Shown here in pieces: positions 2,531-9,235 of a stretch of DNA of 10,544 nucleotides; the first letter of the stretch is position 1; each line of letters begins with the position of its first letter. The notes beneath the pieces are model-generated. The model did not search any database. It saw only the letters and a list, made by a program, of their open reading frames with translations, and was not told the DNA's origin. Location: positions 1-10,544 of the IMG/VR virus record IMGVR_UViG_2579778804_000012, one strand, 5' to 3'. The stretch is from a virus. Lineage: Duplodnaviria > Heunggongvirae > Uroviricota > Caudoviricetes. A program made the position numbers and the translations under genes.

Positions 2531-2599
2531 CAACGCCCCGCAGTGATGGGAACACATACGGGGCGTCTAACCAAACCATTAATTGAGGTAACGATTATG
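2531..2599. ncRNA. structured element copy 1: 7-bp GC stem CGCCCCG/CGGGGCG with 18-nt loop, conserved tail TCTAACCAAACC, RBS and ATG GCT; leader RNA on plus strand and/or terminator on minus strand
   Basis: Stem 2534-2540/2559-2565. On the minus strand it is followed by TTGTTTTTTGTG (terminator-like). On the plus strand it precedes GAGG, then ATG at 2597. Homologous to 3398-3466. Confidence 0.4.
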
Positions 2600-2685
2600 G
2601 CTATAAAAGAGCATAGCTTACTCTTTATACACACACAAACGCCCCGGAAACGGAATAATCCGTTTCATAGTTCGGTTTTGTGCAC

Positions 2686-2913
2686 TCATCCTGGCGGTCG
2701 GTTTTTGCCGGATTTAAGCCGCCGTGGGTATTTATCGACAAAATCTTCAAGGGCAAATTTTTCTGGTGGCACTAAGCGCGGCGCTGGTGGTGGTATTTTT
2801 GTTCTGGTTAGTTCTTCCTCAAGTCTGGCGCAGGCTTCTGACTGCCTTTGCCGGATGATTTCATCATCTTGCGTTTGCGTGTCTTGTATTGGTGATAGTG
2901 TGTTGTTGGTCAT
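2686..2913 (-). CDS. small acidic/proline-rich protein of unknown function (75 aa), paralog of the 2025..2228 gene
   Basis: Starts MTNN.., contains FALEDFVDKY; preceded by the 43-bp element copy b. Confidence 0.55.
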   Translation of the reverse strand: MTNNTLSPIQDTQTQDDEIIRQRQSEACARLEEELTRTKIPPPAPRLVPPEKFALEDFVDKYPRRLKSGKNRPPG

Positions 2914-2922
2914 GTTACTGCC

Positions 2923-2965
2923 CTGTAAAGCAATGCGCCGGAGTTCCTCACGCCACGGCGCTGAT
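2923..2965. repeat. 43-bp element, copy b (100% identical to 2238-2280)
   Basis: Identical 43-mer between the RHH gene stop (2971) and the downstream gene start (2913). Confidence 0.9.
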
Positions 2966-2970
2966 AGTGA

Positions 2971-3277
2971 TTATTCTGATTCTTTGGCCTTGCGGCGCTG
3001 GAGTTCTTCGCGTGCGATGGCGATAAGTTGCCCGAGTTCTTCCGTAGCTTTAATACCAATTTTTTCCACTTGCGCCAATGCATCGAGAGAAGAAATCAGA
3101 GGATTTTCACTGCTTCCTTCTGCCTGGCGGCGGGCGATCTCCCCGCGCATGGCGGTTACTATGAATCCGGCGTTGCTTTCGCCGTCCAGTTTTACGGATT
3201 CCATGCCATCAAAAGCATCATGTGGGATACGAATTGAAATCTGTTTTGATTTGTCGTTGATAGTGTTTTTTGCCATG
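2971..3277 (-). CDS. ribbon-helix-helix (Arc/CopG-like) DNA-binding protein candidate, 101 aa from the MAKNT start
   Basis: KQISIRIPHDAFDGMESVKLDGESNAGFIVTAMRGEIARRQ fits the RHH pattern. Start moved from the track ATG at 3315 to the ATG at 3277, which sits 6 nt after RBS AGGAGA. C-terminus resembles the Arc-like paralog (IAREELQRRKAKESE vs IRKELQQRGIEPKE). Confidence 0.6.
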
Positions 3278-3298
3278 TGCATTCTCCTAAACAAAAGA

Positions 3299-3376
3299 TG
3301 TGATTCAGTATACACAAAAAAGAATCACAAAAAACACTTGACCTGTGATTCAGTTGAATTTAATTTAAATCACACC
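3299..3376. promoter_or_regulatory. operator-like cluster: TGTGATTCAGT direct repeats (3299-3309, 3344-3354) plus inverted half-sites GAATCACA (3322-3329) and AATCACAC (3368-3375); weak candidate promoter TTGACC at 3338-3343
   Basis: Repeated motif in both orientations in the divergent region between the RHH gene and the Icd-like gene. Confidence 0.4.
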
Positions 3377-3397
3377 TCAGTAAGAGGATGTAAACGA

Positions 3398-3463
3398 CAA
3401 CGCCCCGAACTGTTTGCGGCAGTAGCGGGGCGTCTAACCAAACCGTTAACAGGAGTAACGATT
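3398..3463 (+). ncRNA. structured leader copy 2: stem CGCCCCG/CGGGGCG (3401-3407/3426-3432), 18-nt loop, tail TCTAACCAAACC, RBS AGGAG, then ATG GCT; candidate c4/CI-like regulatory RNA or 5'-UTR element
   Basis: Same stem, tail and RBS/start block as copy 1 but a different loop; no U-run on the minus strand, so a plus-strand role is favoured here. Confidence 0.4.
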
Positions 3464-3664
3464 ATGGCTGGAACACAGCATACCCCACGTCTGGCGCACA
3501 CACAAACTGCCTTTGTGTGGCGTTTTCTGGCCCTGAGTGCCGGAGAATCTCAAATCATCCACGTAACCGCCTGGACGGAACGCGAAGCGCGTAACCGTTG
3601 CCCGTCCGGTTGTGTTGCTGTATTCGCTGCCCGTATTCGCCAGGGGGAAACCTATGCACAATAA
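3464..3664 (+). CDS. small protein (66 aa) in the position of Icd-like (host cell division inhibitor-like) proteins of P4-type elements; identity tentative
   Basis: MAGTQHTPRLAHTQTAFVWRFLALSAGESQ...; good RBS; follows the structured leader. The first 15 aa are homologous to the truncated start at 2597 (MAIKEHSLLFIHTQT). Confidence 0.5.
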   Translation: MAGTQHTPRLAHTQTAFVWRFLALSAGESQIIHVTAWTEREARNRCPSGCVAVFAARIRQGETYAQ

Positions 3665-3884
3665 AACCACACCGGACGCAGCAGAAGAAGCAATGCAAAT
3701 ACTGATACGTGCGCTCGTTGATGTTACCCACATGGTGGAGAGCATGGAGAGAAAATCACAGTCGGAGCACGACAAAAGAAAACTTAAAACAATAAAAATA
3801 ATTGCCAAAAACTCGCTGATAAAAGTTACAGACATCCTTAATGAGGACATTAAAAGAATAAGGGAGAAAATTTGTGATGCATAA
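3654..3884 (+). CDS. hypothetical small protein (76 aa), AT-rich gene
   Basis: ATG at 3654 with RBS AGGGGG 6 nt upstream; overlaps the Icd-like stop; lysine-rich, low GC. Confidence 0.5.
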   Translation: MHNKTTPDAAEEAMQILIRALVDVTHMVESMERKSQSEHDKRKLKTIKIIAKNSLIKVTDILNEDIKRIREKICDA

Positions 3885-4104
3885 AATCCCTTTTGAAGTA
3901 TTAATCCACTCTGAAAACGCATTAATTAAAGCACGCGAAATGAATGCGTTGTTAATTAAATTAATTGAAGTGCCGGAAGGTGGTGAAGAATCAGGTGTAT
4001 TAATGTTTGCAGCCATTCAGACATTACTATCGCCTGTTATTGATGAACTGGATAAGGCAATGGCAATTCACGAGAATAATAACTCGCCCCACACCGGAGA
4101 ATAA
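3874..4104 (+). CDS. hypothetical small protein (about 75 aa), AT-rich gene
   Basis: GTG 3874 / ATG 3877 after RBS AAGGGAG; start overlaps the stop of the previous gene. Confidence 0.5.
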   Translation: MMHKIPFEVLIHSENALIKAREMNALLIKLIEVPEGGEESGVLMFAAIQTLLSPVIDELDKAMAIHENNNSPHTGE

Positions 4105-4109
4105 AAATA

Positions 4110-4409
4110 ATGAAACTTAAATATTCTGGCTTAACTGCCAGTGGCAACACTCACCCTAAATTTACGCGCGGTGATATTTACCGCGACCAGTACGGCGGCA
4201 CGGTAATGATTAAGGGCGTGGCGGGACGGTGCGTAACTTACCGCCGTGAAGGTTACGAATATGATTGCGTGATGCCTGTTTATCAGTTCCGGCGTGATTT
4301 TTCTCTGGTACAGACCGCGCCGCATAACGTGCCCACCAGCAACGCCAGGGCACGGGCAAACATCCAGAAGCTGAAAACCATGATTAACGGATTCAGGGGT
4401 AAAAAATGA
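4110..4409 (+). CDS. hypothetical protein (99 aa), translationally coupled to the helicase gene
   Basis: RBS GGAGA 9 nt upstream; its stop overlaps the helicase ATG (ATGA). Confidence 0.6.
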   Translation: MKLKYSGLTASGNTHPKFTRGDIYRDQYGGTVMIKGVAGRCVTYRREGYEYDCVMPVYQFRRDFSLVQTAPHNVPTSNARARANIQKLKTMINGFRGKK

Positions 4410-5815
4410 AACTGGCACCGAACGTAAAACTATTACCGAAAGACAAATACACCGATGCGATTATTTTTGCGGGTATTGATGCTCACTCATTCGCAGAGCA
4501 TTACATCATTGCACAGGCCAAAAAAGCAGGCGATCCAGTCCCTCCCGTTTATCTGGGGCGTTATCAGTTAAGCGAACTGGATAACCTCCAGATTGTTGAT
4601 GATGGGCGATACAGGGCGACGGTGATACGCGCCGGAAATATTGAAGAGCCGCAGCTGTTAACCATCGCCACGAAACTGGCGATCGCCGGAGTCCAGGAGG
4701 CGCGGCTACTTTCTGAAAATTTCGAATTGCTGGAGGAATGGAGCGACCAGCTTCCACGGCTTAGGGAGGCATGGGAACGCGGGGAAAGCCTGGTCATGAA
4801 AAAAATCCCCCAGCGAAAAACCACGCTACCGATGAGCGTTGGATCTACCGGATACGACACACAGCTTGATTACGTGGTAAAGGGGATTATTCCGGCATCG
4901 TCGCTTTGCAGCATATACGGGGCGAGCGGTTCCTATAAATCATTCCTTGCCGGATCGTGGGCGTGTCACGTTTCCACGGGCCGCCAGTGGGGAGGCCGCA
5001 GGGTGGCGCATGGCGCTGTTCTCTATGTGGTTGGTGAAGGCGGTATCGGCGTTCCGCGTCGTGTAAAAGCCTGGGAGGTTGTGCACGGTGAGCAGGTGAA
5101 AAATCTGTATCTGGTAAACCGTCCCATCTTTCCGGCGGTCCCGCTTGATGTTGATGAAATGGTTATCGCTGCCCGTCAGGTGGAGCGGGAAACGGGTAAA
5201 CCTGTACGCATGATTATTCTGGATACGCTGGCGCGTTGCTTTGGTGGGAATGATGAAAATGATTCCCGTGATATGGGGGCGTTTATCCGTGGTTGTGACG
5301 AACTGAAACGACGCACAGGGGCCACGGTGCTGGTGGTTCACCATTCCGGCAAGGATGAGACGAAAGGCGCGCGCGGTTCCAGTGCATTTCGTGCATCACT
5401 GGATGCTGAATACCGGATACGCAGGGAGGACGCAGGAAGCGAAGCGCTGGTTATCTCATGCACCAAAATGAAGGACGCGGAGGAACTCAAAGAAGCCGCA
5501 TATGACTTACGCGTGGTGGAGCTGTTTACCGACGCTGACGGGGAGTTAATCACGTCGCTGGTGGTGGTGGATAAGCCGCGCCCTCCCGTTGAACTGGAAC
5601 GCATCGAGGAGGCAGGCAACAAGACGGAAAACCATACCGCACTATGGGGGTGCATCCGTTCACGCACACAGAACGGCGACAAGTGCACGATCCCGCTGTT
5701 ACGTGATGACATGAAACGGCTTGGGTATGACGTGAAAAATATGCGGCGATGGTTAGCCAAACTGGAAAAAGACGCCGTGATTTACATTGATGGTGATGAT
5801 GTAGGACCACTGTAA
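4406..5815 (+). CDS. RepA-like replicative helicase / RecA-fold AAA ATPase with C-terminal DNA-binding region
   Basis: 469 aa; Walker A GASGSYKS, Walker B-like VRMIILDTLAR, then VLVVHHSGKD; an iteron array lies immediately downstream. Confidence 0.85.
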   Translation: MKLAPNVKLLPKDKYTDAIIFAGIDAHSFAEHYIIAQAKKAGDPVPPVYLGRYQLSELDNLQIVDDGRYRATVIRAGNIEEPQLLTIATKLAIAGVQEARLLSENFELLEEWSDQLPRLREAWERGESLVMKKIPQRKTTLPMSVGSTGYDTQLDYVVKGIIPASSLCSIYGASGSYKSFLAGSWACHVSTGRQWGGRRVAHGAVLYVVGEGGIGVPRRVKAWEVVHGEQVKNLYLVNRPIFPAVPLDVDEMVIAARQVERETGKPVRMIILDTLARCFGGNDENDSRDMGAFIRGCDELKRRTGATVLVVHHSGKDETKGARGSSAFRASLDAEYRIRREDAGSEALVISCTKMKDAEELKEAAYDLRVVELFTDADGELITSLVVVDKPRPPVELERIEEAGNKTENHTALWGCIRSRTQNGDKCTIPLLRDDMKRLGYDVKNMRRWLAKLEKDAVIYIDGDDVGPL

Positions 5816-6015
5816 AAAGTGAGTAGCAAAAGTGAGTAATGGTGAGGTTTTTACAAAATATTAACACGATTACTCACTTTCTCACCTGTATACATGCTCA
5901 AAAGTGAGGAGTAAAAAAATCCTTATGAAACACACACATAAAGCATCAAAAAATATCAAGTGAGACGAAGCGAGACGCTTTAAAAAGTGAGGTGTAAAAG
6001 TGAGCATGAGTGAGG
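5816..6015. repeat. iteron array, putative replication origin: at least 9 copies of (A)AGTGAG in both orientations with AT-rich spacers
   Basis: GTGAG at 5819, 5832, 5842, 5904, 5960, 5987, 6000, 6010; inverted CTCAC at 5874 and 5881; AT-rich stretches 5850-5870 and 5911-5957. Confidence 0.6.
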
Positions 6016-7154: not shown

Positions 7155-7349
7155 ATGCCAGAGAACAACACCAGAAAGCCGGATAAAAGTGCCACGGTAC
7201 ACATAGACGCCGGAACTATGGAGAAGATCGAACGCTATCAGCAGTTCATCAAAGATAATCACCCGGGTATGCCAGTGCCCACGAAAGGACAAATCACACG
7301 CAGCGCGGTTGAATACTGGTACAGGGCAACGTTAGGAGCCTGGCTATGA
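7155..7349 (+). CDS. small protein (64 aa), possible RHH-type regulator, translationally coupled to the capsid gene
   Basis: ATG 7155 is 7 nt after RBS GGAGG (the track ORF starts earlier at 7122); its stop overlaps the ATG at 7346. Confidence 0.5.
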   Translation: MPENNTRKPDKSATVHIDAGTMEKIERYQQFIKDNHPGMPVPTKGQITRSAVEYWYRATLGAWL

Positions 7350-9235
7350 AAACATGGTTTTCCATTAAGGCTATGGCAGATGTTGTACATGTGCGCATTT
7401 ATGACGAGATCGGCGGGTACGGTGTAAAGGCATCGGCACTTACTGACGAGATCAACGCGTGCGGTAATGTGTCTGAAATCCATCTGAGCATTCATTCACC
7501 TGGTGGCGACATCTTTGAAGGGCTGGCTATCTATAACGCTCTGAAAAATCATCCGGCAAAAAAAATCGTACACATTGAAGGCATGGCGGCTTCTATGGCG
7601 TCGTTTATTGCCATGTGTGGAGATCACATCGTTATGCCTGAAAACGCGATGATGATGATACATGCCCCCCGTGGTGTTACTGCCGGAGTGTCGGGCGACG
7701 TTCGCCGCTTTGCTGATCTGATGGACAAGCTGGGCGACACGATGGCAGAAACCTATGCCGGAAGAACGGGCAGGAGCAAACAGGAGATCACCTCCATGAT
7801 GGAGGCGGAAACCTGGATGGATGGCAATGAGTGTAAGGCTAACGGCTTCGCAGATGAGGTTATACCCGCGATTACAGCAATGGCCCGAATTGAATCAAAA
7901 CGAATCGGAGATTTTTCAAATATGCCGGAAAAAATTAAAAGCATGATCAGCCAGAAAACTGGCAGTGGCGAACAGGAACGACTTAACGGAATCCGTGAAT
8001 TGTTTGGCACCTTCAACGGAAGATATAACGACCTGGCTATAAGTTGTCTTGCGGATTCAGAATGTAGCGTTGAGAATGCACGCGAACGCCTTTTACTCGC
8101 TATGGGTAAAGAATCAACGCCAACAAACAAAACCACCCCCGCAAATCTTTACTACGCGTACACGGATAACGGCAATATAACCGGCGATGCCATGCGTCAG
8201 GGGCTTAATGCGCGTCTTGGTCACGAACGGGCCGAACGCGGTAATCCTTACGCCATGATGAGCCTTTTCGATATGGCACAGGCATCATTAACCCATCGTG
8301 GTATAAGCACGGGCAGCTACAGCACACGCTCGCAGATAGTAAACGCGGCATTCACCCACAGCAGCAGCGATTTTACCGATATCCTTGCTGGTGGCGCTGA
8401 AAAATCAGTGCTTGCAGGCTGGGAGCACAGCGGCGAAACATTCCGCCAGTGGACGAAAAAAGGTTCCCTTTCAAACTTCCGGGAAGCCCGCCGCGTTGGT
8501 ATGAATGGCTTCTCAACGTTAAACAAAGTGCCGGAAGGGGCAGAATATAAATACATCACCACCAGCGATCGCGGTGAACCCATCGCGCTGGCTACTTACG
8601 GGAATATTTTCAGCATTACCCGCCAGGCGATAATCAATGATGACCTTGATCAGTTATCAACGGTGCCAATGGCTATGGGCCGTGCAGCATCAAGAACGGT
8701 GGGAAATCTGGTTAATCTGGTGCTTACAGGCAACGTAAAACTTTCTGACGGAATAGCGCTGTTTGACAAAAAACACAGCAACCTGATTGAAGCAGGACTG
8801 ACAACACCGGGACTTAGTGCAGCACGTCACCTGATGCGCACACAGAAGGACAAAAATGGCGAAGTGCTGAATATTGCGCCTAAATTCCTTTTAGTTCCGG
8901 CAGCACTGGAAGATCGCGCGTTGCAGATGATTAACTCAACCGCACCTTTCGGGGCTGATAAAAACAGCGGGATCTTTAACCCGTATCACAAGCTACTTGA
9001 TATCATCGTCGATCCCCGCCTTGATGATATCAGCGAAAAACAATGGTACATGCTTTCCGCACAGGGAACGGACACAATCGAGGTGGCTTATCTTGATGGC
9101 AATGACGAACCTTACCTTGAACAGCAGGAAGGCTTTATCGTTGACGGCGTGGCCTGGAAAGTCCGTATTGATGCAGGTGTGGCAGCTCTGGATTATCGCG
9201 GTATGGTCAAATCAGGCGGTACCGATTCACTATGA
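7346..9235 (+). CDS. prohead protease (ClpP/S14-like) fused to a probable major capsid protein, with a scaffold-like linker
   Basis: 629 aa; N-terminal 170 aa IHSPGGDIFEGLAIYNALKNH...HIEGMAASMASFIAMCGDHIVMPENAMMMIHAP matches the phage ClpP-like head-maturation protease pattern; the C-terminal ~400 aa is inferred to be capsid from size and context, not from a recognised motif. Confidence 0.75.
   Translation: MKTWFSIKAMADVVHVRIYDEIGGYGVKASALTDEINACGNVSEIHLSIHSPGGDIFEGLAIYNALKNHPAKKIVHIEGMAASMASFIAMCGDHIVMPENAMMMIHAPRGVTAGVSGDVRRFADLMDKLGDTMAETYAGRTGRSKQEITSMMEAETWMDGNECKANGFADEVIPAITAMARIESKRIGDFSNMPEKIKSMISQKTGSGEQERLNGIRELFGTFNGRYNDLAISCLADSECSVENARERLLLAMGKESTPTNKTTPANLYYAYTDNGNITGDAMRQGLNARLGHERAERGNPYAMMSLFDMAQASLTHRGISTGSYSTRSQIVNAAFTHSSSDFTDILAGGAEKSVLAGWEHSGETFRQWTKKGSLSNFREARRVGMNGFSTLNKVPEGAEYKYITTSDRGEPIALATYGNIFSITRQAIINDDLDQLSTVPMAMGRAASRTVGNLVNLVLTGNVKLSDGIALFDKKHSNLIEAGLTTPGLSAARHLMRTQKDKNGEVLNIAPKFLLVPAALEDRALQMINSTAPFGADKNSGIFNPYHKLLDIIVDPRLDDISEKQWYMLSAQGTDTIEVAYLDGNDEPYLEQQEGFIVDGVAWKVRIDAGVAALDYRGMVKSGGTDSL

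Follow-up and report, generated by a model that had tools for sequence, protein, structure and literature searches.

The Gram-negative PICIs EcCICFT073, EcCIO42 and EcCIEDL933 (Fillol-Salom et al. 2018, PMC6092414) are among the described systems closest to the locus analysed here. They are ~10-15 kb long, carry int and alpA at the left end, followed by a rightward operon with rgdR, then pri/rep with an iteron origin and a capsid-protein homologue, and they lack tail and lysis genes. Iterons 3' of rep are a layout described for PICIs, and all E. coli PICIs analysed are said to encode RgdR (PMC6092414). RgdR itself (ECs1581, from O-island 51/CP-933C of O157:H7; Flockhart et al. 2012, PMC3378721) activates LEE1/type III secretion, and in experiments it repressed motility and bound DNA non-specifically. 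It alters virulence gene expression in EHEC, and the control of its operon is thus of some medical relevance.

The ECOR61 prophage-encoded superinfection exclusion unit consists of an Icd-like gene and five linked genes, including a primase; a phage protein reportedly sets off a growth arrest that requires every one of them (Silas et al., bioRxiv 10.1101/2023.04.06.535777). The left operon of phage P4 (orf88/vis, Ash-like region, epsilon, orf151, cnr, alpha) likewise brings together an AlpA-like regulator, an Ash/Icd-like region, small genes and a primase-helicase. P4 epsilon derepresses P2, and P4 cnr controls copy number.

The window (the whole stretch of DNA analysed here, 10,544 nt) is a complete phage satellite of ~10.5 kb, of Gram-negative PICI (EcCI) type, in E. 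coli tqsA. Fragments of tqsA flank it, and its identity follows from its content of int, alpA, icd-like, rep, SSB and protease-capsid fusion genes together with the iterons 3' of rep. Like the three islands above, it has int and alpA at one end, a rightward operon with rgdR, a replication gene of its own with an iteron origin behind it, a size within ~10-15 kb and no tail or lysis genes; it also has its own chromosomal att site. The earlier note on this DNA had taken the element for a satellite, and its gene content and origin bear this out. The insertion site lies between ydgD/mdtJI and pntAB, the same interval as that between ydgD and ydgG in which Flockhart et al. placed a related element of ED1a (PMC3378721).

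Unlike many of its PICI relatives, which have a D5-type primase, the island encodes a RepA/AAA_25 helicase. Four small leftward genes form a block between alpA and icd, where there is also a divergent control region; both are missing from EcCICFT073-type maps, and, unlike the Gram-negative PICIs compared, the island carries rare C1-E1 alleles of two small genes (ORF1 and ORF2). An Rfam search of the whole window gave a single match, below threshold and in the int-alpA spacer. It found no immunity RNA of C4/CI type, which is a further difference from P4.

Architecture of the rightward operon

The operon runs from an icd-like gene through ORF1, ORF2 and ORF3 (rgdR) to a RepA-type helicase. Its features are:

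3299-3463, + strand: divergent control region upstream of the operon, with several inverted repeats
3464-3664, + strand: icd-like gene, 66 aa, first of the operon (NCBIfam phage_ICD_like, E = 5e-18; RefSeq annotation)
3654-3884, + strand: ORF1, 76 aa, lysine-rich, pI 8.8, 38.5% GC, predicted two-helix hairpin
3877-4104, + strand: ORF2, 75 aa, acidic (pI 4.9), 37.7% GC, GC3 0.33, predicted two-helix hairpin with a disordered tail
4090-4109, + strand: nearly invariant junction CACACCGGAGAATAAAAATA, with the last ORF2 codons (HTGE and stop), the rgdR Shine-Dalgarno GGAG and a 5-nt spacer
4110-4409, + strand: ORF3 (rgdR), 99 aa, pI 10.17, DUF4222, its stop overlapping the helicase start (ATGA)
4406-5815, + strand: RepA-family (AAA_25) replicative helicase, the replication protein of the satellite
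5817-6004, no strand: replication origin, an AT-rich core immediately 3' of rep flanked by AAGTGAG iterons, of which the window has seven, all of them here

All five genes are translationally coupled: icd and ORF1 overlap by 11 nt and ORF1 and ORF2 by 8 nt, ORF2 and ORF3 are 5 nt apart, and ORF3 overlaps the helicase by 4 nt. The earlier note described three small genes at these positions, with the 99-aa product coupled to the helicase. Apart from the 8-nt extent of the ORF1/ORF2 overlap its description holds, and three real, coupled genes lie between the icd-like gene, here in its short form, and the helicase. The seven iterons compare with 0.81 copies expected, a count reached in 0 of 200 shuffles, and the origin that they define is outside the three-gene block.

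Within the control region, two exact copies of TGTGATTCAGT (3299-3309 and 3344-3354) surround TTGACC, a weak hexamer of -35 type. A search of the + strand gave no consensus sigma-70 promoter, which would fit activator-dependent transcription. On the + strand of the three-gene block no site resembles a promoter, and the one terminator-like hairpin is weak. A 373-aa ORF at 2543-3664, in frame with icd, is an artefact antisense to well-supported leftward genes. Antisense ORFs of 158, 86 and 95 aa occur in the block; over the ORF2 stretch, to which this check was confined, the minus-strand frames contain stops in 6 of 6 alleles checked, and the + frame alone stays open in all.

RgdR and the small genes upstream of it

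None of the three small genes had been thought recognisable by eye. This does not apply to ORF3, which matches Pfam DUF4222 (PF13973) over the whole 53-position model with 82.1 bits against a gathering cut-off of 27 (E = 2.1e-23). RgdR is described as a protein of 99 aa and pI ~10 with a core at 20-68, an RGD motif at 20-22 and >77% identity to ECs1581 (PMC3378721), and ORF3 has these properties. Its RGD motif is intact (R20-G21-D22), and it shares 96% identity with the OI-51 copy of O157:H7 (L002, the roxA-adjacent island) and is 100% identical to those of L003 and L004; the identity was taken against the L002 copy, itself not matched letter by letter to Sakai ECs1581. Judging by its sequence, ORF3 is the published regulator RgdR. 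As in O157:H7 (PMC3378721), the gene lies just upstream of and overlaps a replication gene. A scan for RgdR in one genome per species returned only 2 loci, with peptide patterns that are too specific and poor sampling outside Escherichia, Shigella and Yersinia.

ORF2 is allele E1 of a family whose members immediately precede rgdR in almost every related island: 71 of the 74 unique loci have this order, 69 of them with a gap of 5 nt. A minimal form of the operon, icd-ORF2-rgdR-primase, is found in IHE3034. The family has a conserved motif, TLLxPVIxEL, and a constant length. In 12 informative pairs with dS up to 0.97, its dN/dS is 0.15-0.30, which indicates purifying selection. The same RgdR allele pairs with both E1 and E2, so that there is no co-variation between the two proteins. 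Although E1 and E2 loci are otherwise only ~33% identical as proteins, they have the same ~23 nt at the ORF2-rgdR junction, and therefore the conservation of HTGE at the C-terminus is best accounted for on the DNA level.

ORF1, as C1, is a minority allele in a positional family to which 80-aa proteins also belong, as does a 154-aa protein of O157:H7 through its N-terminal half. ORF1 is 35-47% identical to the proteins in the same position of related loci, and the family is present in most of the 74 unique loci. Its length is constant and its dN/dS (0.45-0.64) also indicates purifying selection. On this evidence, both ORF1 and ORF2 are to be regarded as real genes. Homologues of ORF1 form 24 clusters, from Escherichia only, and there are weak matches to phrog_5146 and phrog_2512. 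Since ORF1 is missing from 5 of the 11 unique E1 loci, it cannot be essential.

Between icd and rgdR, islands differ in how many small genes they have and in which ones. In related loci these genes form a mosaic of at least six families in many combinations, and they sort into a few positional families, among which the ORF2 family is the nearly constant, always AT-rich neighbour of rgdR. ORF1 and ORF2 are minority alleles of families at fixed operon positions, with subfamilies only ~33-37% identical. The pair occurs in 43 of 5426 complete E. coli genomes, and the operon flanks in 1494 of 5426 (about a quarter). The ~33% identity between subfamilies would be no less compatible with an arms race than with a housekeeping role.

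Neither ORF1 nor ORF2 has a Pfam, NCBIfam or PADLOC family. The Pfam search extended to E up to 10 for ORF1 and seven same-interval proteins of related loci and to E up to 1 for ORF2, and PADLOC-DB v2 gave no family at E up to 0.1 for ten island proteins, including ORF1, ORF2, ORF3, icd-like and helicase. An exhaustive profile search of 1.84 billion representatives with the ORF2 family returned 20 matches, all tiny proteins, and no longer or annotated relative. A tblastn search of 50,697 phage records found no homologue of ORF1 or ORF2 and one weak RgdR match, and a literature search for the locus tags of neighbouring small genes gave nothing relevant.

Structure prediction, which the earlier note had suggested along with remote homology, gives a two-helix hairpin for both proteins: the AlphaFold2 model of ORF1 has pLDDT 87.8 with helices at 7-34 and 38-75, and the ORF2 model has pLDDT 78.8 with helices at 6-30 and 37-68. 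Foldseek matched these models to generic helical hairpins only in PDB and BFVD (best E-values 2.8 and 0.09). Several specific identities were not supported. A comparison of the two gives little reason to take them for diverged paralogues of each other (hhalign probability 0.45%). The pairing of a basic ORF1 with an acidic ORF2 recalls a type II toxin-antitoxin pair, for which there is no family match and in which ORF2 would not be expected alone, as it is in 5 of 11 E1 loci. The P4 epsilon 'Derepression protein family' (PF25738) has no Pfam match to either protein, and hhalign of the ORF1-family profile with epsilon gives 0.1%. Unlike the P4 genes, ORF1 and ORF2 have no detectable homology to epsilon, orf151 or cnr; homology of the block's proteins to epsilon and cnr was rejected, and orf151 is a weak lead only, through an unproven resemblance of its N-terminus to RgdR.

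Composition of the AT-rich stretch

The three-gene block had been described as AT-rich, and a windowed GC calculation found a real dip, which is confined to ORF1 and ORF2. Positions 3654-4104 have a GC content of 38.4%, whereas the window as a whole has 48.2%; relative to every 451-bp window this is z = -2.06, with lower values in the int-alpA intergenic region alone. ORF1 (38.5%) and ORF2 (37.7%) are the two lowest-GC coding sequences among the island's 15, while ORF3 is at 50.3%. Of the two proteins that had been called lysine-rich, only ORF1 is so (10 K in 76 residues, pI 8.8); ORF2 has 4 K in 75 and is acidic.

The dip is more than chance because it recurs in the ORF2-family genes of relatives. 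Their GC is 0.32-0.42 in 72 alleles (0.380 in E1, 0.398 in E2 and 0.320 in E3), compared with 0.50 in the adjoining rgdR and 0.54 in rep, and their GC3 is 0.33-0.36, compared with 0.56 in rgdR. Since low GC is common to alleles at dS up to ~0.9 and to subfamilies that are ~33% identical, it is ancestral and not a recent import. The ORF2 family and the present ORF1 allele have inherited their low GC, which is not the mark of foreign cargo and has its source partly in amino-acid composition and partly in AT-biased synonymous sites.

Roles of the small genes

We consider it reasonably probable that the block forms the promoter-proximal portion of the early/replication operon that runs rightward in an EcCI-type PICI in tqsA, and that its hairpin proteins are protein-binding early factors. 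A helper phage would cause AlpA to switch on the island, and the operon would be transcribed as one unit; we infer both co-transcription and AlpA control by analogy with EcCICFT073. The Icd-like protein would then arrest division, and the two hairpin proteins may bind other proteins of host, helper or satellite and so condition the cell for satellite replication. Binding to proteins is suggested because the predicted hairpins have no catalytic or DNA-binding fold. RgdR may be a general DNA-binding co-regulator as replication starts, and the adjacent iteron origin would be fired by Rep. For the present window this mostly clarifies that the genes belong to an ordinary PICI early operon, not to a new cargo cassette.

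Such a cassette, compositionally distinct and carrying helper-interference or anti-phage cargo, was what the earlier note had proposed; the distinct composition stands, and the imported cargo does not. It is possible, though unlikely, that ORF1 and/or ORF2 are stand-alone effectors or sensors that bind a protein of helper or competitor phages and either block the phage or trigger an Icd-mediated growth arrest, with their diversity reflecting an arms race. The mosaic of at least six families between icd and rgdR, the divergence of the subfamilies and the rarity of the pair relative to its flanks would fit this, and small hairpin proteins are typical protein binders. Facultative cargo, however, would not be expected to show the near-universal presence (71/74 synteny) and purifying selection of the ORF2 family, its low GC is ancestral, there is no PADLOC match, ORF3 is RgdR, and the position is outside the published PICI immune hotspots, which are at the 5' end, at the 3' end and downstream of pri, not upstream (PMC11364771). 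The ECOR61 unit bears on both sides. Like the present operon, it has an Icd-like gene, after which come overlapping small genes and a replication gene (a primase in ECOR61), and a T7-group accessory protein sets off its growth arrest. Its transposon-hit genes agree in size and overlap with the architecture icd-F-B-E3-rgdR-primase of locus L005, which contains an ORF2-family gene and a DUF4222 gene. The six-gene unit is thus probably homologous to the present operon type, as matched by coordinates only and not by sequence, and the operon unit is probably the reported phage-triggered growth-arrest system. Yet the likely effector in ECOR61 is the Icd-like protein, all six genes are needed, and the insertions fell in F and B, which are missing from the present window with its short Icd-like form. 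By analogy with this growth-arrest unit, the block may still have a role in phage conflict.

A direct role in replication is rather more doubtful. Here ORF2, with or without ORF1, would be a regulator or loader of the satellite initiator and a positional analogue of P4 epsilon, orf151 or cnr, with RgdR as a DNA-binding partner. The fixed order ORF2-rgdR-rep and its translational coupling are consistent with this, as is the location of cnr directly upstream of alpha in P4, and in lambdoid phages, too, short DUF4222 ORFs immediately precede unrelated replication initiators. The N-terminus of orf151 weakly resembles the DUF4222 core (pairwise E = 0.003), but hhalign gives a probability of 11% for orf151, and Pfam finds no DUF4222 in orf151 and no DUF5375 or Derepression family in the window proteins. 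A primase helicase-binding hairpin is among the top, non-significant fold matches (E = 3.3). ORF2 alleles pair with both RepA-helicase and D5-primase initiators and do not track Rep type, which argues against a specific Rep partnership; the lack of co-variation with RgdR likewise speaks against this replication role. It is very improbable that the stretch acts mainly as DNA, for example as an H-NS nucleation/silencing site or an internal rgdR-rep promoter, with incidental ORFs. LEE1 is silenced by H-NS. The LEE1 promoter activated by RgdR also responds to Ler, and the LEE effect requires rgdR expression in uninduced cells (PMC3378721). The low GC3 of all ORF2-family alleles despite saturating synonymous divergence would suggest a compositional constraint at the DNA level. 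However, the protein is under clear purifying selection at constant ORF length, the sequence at synonymous sites is not conserved (in the same pairs, dS is higher for ORF2 than for rgdR), and in the block there is no Rfam match and no promoter-like site beside the weak hairpin. At best, a DNA-level role would be additional to the coding role, not its replacement.

An early operon with protein-binding hairpin proteins is thus the reading that we prefer. A more elaborate version, modelled on the six-gene ECOR61 unit and in our view a long shot, would make the hairpin proteins the specificity subunits of a satellite-encoded abortive-infection switch. The ORF1 and ORF2 families would sense accessory or early proteins of phages and, with RgdR and Rep, release the Icd-like division inhibitor; the C1/C2 and E1/E2/E3 alleles would be the record of an arms race, and the AT-rich DNA would be H-NS-silenced until relieved by RgdR or AlpA. 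In the present host, the LEE1 activation published for O157:H7 RgdR may lack a target.

Island identity and layout

E. coli 89-3156 matches the 10,544-nt window at 100% identity (981 bases compared), and in that genome the island is inserted inside tqsA (ydgG), with pntAB on one side and mdtJI/ydgD on the other. The same ydgD-ydgG interval carries a related element in strain ED1a (Flockhart et al., PMC3378721). The left part of the island encodes, in order, an integrase, AlpA and four small proteins in leftward orientation, among them an Arc-like protein and a member of the YlcI/YnfO family, followed by a divergent control region. In EcCICFT073, an E. coli phage-inducible chromosomal island (PICI), AlpA is induced by the helper and activates the rightward island genes. 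Rightward genes 3' of the helicase encode a small protein, SSB, a protease/capsid fusion and one further small protein.

Main features of the window
3277-3463, divergent control region, flanked by the leftward YlcI/YnfO-family gene and by icd
3464-3664, rightward, icd-like gene
3654-3884, rightward, ORF1
3877-4104, rightward, ORF2
4110-4409, rightward, ORF3
4406-5815, rightward, RepA/AAA_25 helicase
7346-9235, rightward, ClpP-like prohead protease/major capsid fusion, 629 aa (NCBIfam scaf_prot_MCP1, E = 3e-267)

AAGTGAG occurs seven times in the window (0.81 expected), each time within 5817-6004, directly 3' of the helicase gene, and the copies are grouped about an AT-rich core. The satellite probably has its replication origin at this iteron cluster; an iteron origin 3' of the replication gene is a placement known from PICIs (PMC6092414). 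Based on gene content, iteron placement and the ydgD-ydgG location, the element is a Gram-negative PICI-type phage satellite. It carries the protease/capsid fusion without portal, terminase or tail genes, and capsid size redirection or interference are possible roles for this protein.

The control region contains TGTGATTCAGT twice, exactly and 45 nt apart (3299-3309 and 3344-3354), an 11-nt perfect inverted repeat (3262-3272/3328-3338) and only a weak -35/-10 pair; its make-up resembles that of an operator or activator site. PICIs of the EcCICFT073 type are described as transcribed one way only, thus the switch-like divergent layout may be a variant. A probably artefactual 373-aa open frame (2543-3664) continues in phase into the icd-like gene, antisense to two well-supported leftward genes. 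RefSeq nevertheless lists long or partial "Icd-like" pseudogenes 5' of the short gene at related loci, and a genuine long Icd-like form of 121-154 aa exists in some islands. The AT-rich int-alpA spacer (1369-1447) gives a sub-threshold Rfam match to BSnc120 (27.9 bits; gathering score 114), most likely a mere terminator-like hairpin.

ORF3 is RgdR

The earlier note found none of the three small genes recognisable by eye. Neither ORF1 nor ORF2 belongs to a family in Pfam, NCBIfam or PADLOC, but ORF3 is a known protein. It matches Pfam DUF4222 (E = 2e-23), shares 96% identity with the O157:H7 copy from the roxA-adjacent island, is 100% identical to copies in other islands, and has R20-G21-D22. 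The characterised member of this family, RgdR (ECs1581, O-island 51), is a 99-aa protein of pI ~10 with its RGD motif at positions 20-22, where residue 20 influences activity; RgdR is a non-specific DNA binder that switches on LEE1 and type III secretion and represses motility (PMC3378721; PMC10877973). ORF3 is RgdR.

Short DUF4222 ORFs also occur outside PICIs, in 114 lambdoid phage records, and we inspected their neighbourhood in three of these. In KpnBHU6 the DUF4222 ORF and the replication initiator gene share 4 nt; in Shigella phage SfIV the overlap is with a "primosomal protein" gene and measures 11 nt; and in mEp460 the ORF lies two genes 5' of the replication gene.

Unannotated DUF4222 ORFs in phages
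L097 (SfIV locus) 2459-2680
L098 (mEp460 locus) 2501-2680

Both of these ORFs lie under other annotated frames, "hypothetical protein gp40" and the N-terminal part of a 383-aa "Rha", which look mis-called. Since DUF4222 genes abut RepA-type helicases, D5-type primases and the phage replication proteins, at least three kinds of initiator, we infer that their role is general, in early regulation or DNA binding, and not a specific partnership with one initiator. The 469-aa RepA-type helicases and 584-aa D5-type primases share a Rep N-terminus, MKLAPNVK... or MKSAPNLK... (compared at window 4406-4440 and, in two related loci, L004 3870 and L002 5352). Replication modules may therefore be exchanged by recombination at the rgdR/rep junction.

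Composition and conservation of the block

The genes are as tightly packed as the earlier note had it: icd/ORF1 and ORF1/ORF2 overlap by 11 and 8 nt, ORF2 and ORF3 are separated by 5 nt, and ORF3 meets the helicase gene in an ATGA overlap. A purine-rich, Shine-Dalgarno-like stretch precedes each gene at plausible spacing, as read from the sequence. Other parts of that observation were only partly right. Windowed GC is not uniform, and ORF1 and ORF2 (3654-4104) have 38.4% GC against 48.2% overall (z = -2.06 relative to other 451-bp windows, with lower values confined to the int-alpA spacer) and are the two lowest-GC coding sequences in the island, but ORF3 has 50.3% GC and lies outside the dip, which thus spans two of the three genes. 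Similarly, ORF1 is lysine-rich (10/76 Lys, pI 8.8) but ORF2 is not (4/75 Lys, pI 4.9).

We fetched 80 IMG/VR loci with an RgdR query and added E. coli loci, giving 74 unique loci spanning icd to rgdR. An ORF2-family gene (allele E1, as in the window, E2 or E3) lies directly 5' of rgdR in 71 of these, with a 5-nt gap in 69. The almost invariant junction CACACCGGAGAATAAAAATAATG encodes the ORF2 C-terminal HTGE and holds the rgdR ribosome-binding site; this accounts for the conservation of a tail whose predicted state is disorder. Islands differ in what separates icd from the ORF2-family gene: nothing, or up to several additional small genes that belong to at least five families, and in some cases also a second Icd-like gene of the long type; IHE3034 has the minimal form, icd-ORF2-rgdR-primase. 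The window's ORF1 allele, C1, is paired with E1 in 6/6 cases and its relatives C2/CD with E2 in 58/58, and E1 occurs without any C gene in five loci. E alleles are not correlated with Rep type, and one RgdR allele is found with both E1 and E2.

All ORF2-family alleles are AT-rich (GC 0.380 for E1, 0.398 for E2, 0.320 for E3; GC3 0.33-0.36 vs 0.56 for rgdR), whereas the neighbours are not (icd 0.52, rgdR 0.50, rep 0.54). Thus, judged across alleles, the dip upstream of rgdR is an old, maintained operon trait and not a mark of recent import. Small-gene family D is likewise AT-rich (0.416); ORF1 allele C1 is AT-rich (0.375) but its homologue C2 is not (0.50). With this trait and the nearly constant place of the ORF2 family, the interpretation of the block as imported cargo is not supported.

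ORF1 aligns over its full length (35-47% identity) with same-position proteins of related islands, either 80-aa proteins or the N-terminal half of a 154-aa O157:H7 protein. ORF2 shares 31-36% identity with a 77-aa protein encoded directly 5' of rgdR in these islands, and its relationship to a 73-aa protein is weaker. Far from being unconserved, ORF2 has dN/dS of 0.15-0.30 (12 informative pairs, dS up to 0.97) and ORF1 0.45-0.64 (three pairs, few changes); lengths are constant, and the + frame is the sole open frame in the six ORF2 alleles checked. These results support coding; on sequence comparison both ORFs are real genes, each belonging to a positional family. Sequence searches gave 24 clusters for ORF1 (Escherichia only) and 95 for ORF2 (Escherichia and Shigella), only weak PHROG matches to families of unknown function, and no homologues of either in phage records. 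An ORF2-family profile found only 20 tiny proteins among 1.84 billion representatives, those named being from Escherichia and one Yersinia enterocolitica cluster. The two families have no detectable relationship to each other. Among 5426 complete E. coli genomes, 43 carry the ORF1+ORF2 pair and 1494 carry the flanks. The window's alleles are rare ones, and the block represents rare alleles within a known kind of element, with one gene of three already characterised.

Possible roles of ORF1 and ORF2

AlphaFold2 predicts a two-helix hairpin for both ORF1 (helices 7-34 and 38-75, pLDDT 87.8) and ORF2 (helices 6-30 and 37-68, floppy tail, pLDDT 78.8); Foldseek found nothing significant for either model in PDB or BFVD. 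The best supported reading is that the block would form the front of the satellite's early/replication operon, and that ORF1 and ORF2, as small hairpin proteins, most likely act by binding protein partners while the satellite is induced and replicates. A positional analogy to P4 epsilon, orf151 and cnr keeps ORF1 and ORF2 candidate replication accessory factors, although they lack homology to these and do not co-vary with Rep. The AT-rich stretch also remains a candidate for acting mainly as DNA, but clear selection on the proteins contradicts this as its sole role. Synonymous sites lack sequence conservation (ORF2 dS exceeds rgdR dS in the same pairs), so ORF2 shows no embedded sequence-specific element except the 3' junction; a purely compositional constraint, e.g. 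H-NS binding, is possible.

A role as phage-conflict effectors or sensors, close to the helper-interference or anti-phage function proposed earlier, remains a rival and draws on allelic diversity and on a growth-arrest result in ECOR61. The known immune hotspots of PICIs lie at the two ends of the island, 5' and 3', and downstream of pri; the stretch upstream of pri is not one of them (PMC11364771). Silas et al. (bioRxiv 10.1101/2023.04.06.535777) reported that expression of a T7-group accessory protein (orf24) stops ECOR61 growth, that insertions suppressing the arrest lay in an Icd-like gene or in one of two small genes, and that rebuilding the arrest required all six linked genes, primase included. 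Their supplement coordinates give genes of 366, 186 and 192 nt overlapping by 8 and 1 nt. These sizes and overlaps in the ECOR61 unit (contig QOYT01000045.1) fit icd-F-B-E3-rgdR-primase in the comparison locus L005 (2468-5324), where F and B are other small-gene families. Thus, identified by sizes only, the ECOR61 unit probably has both a member of the ORF2 family and a DUF4222 gene, and the "prophage superinfection-exclusion system" of Silas et al. is probably a PICI operon.
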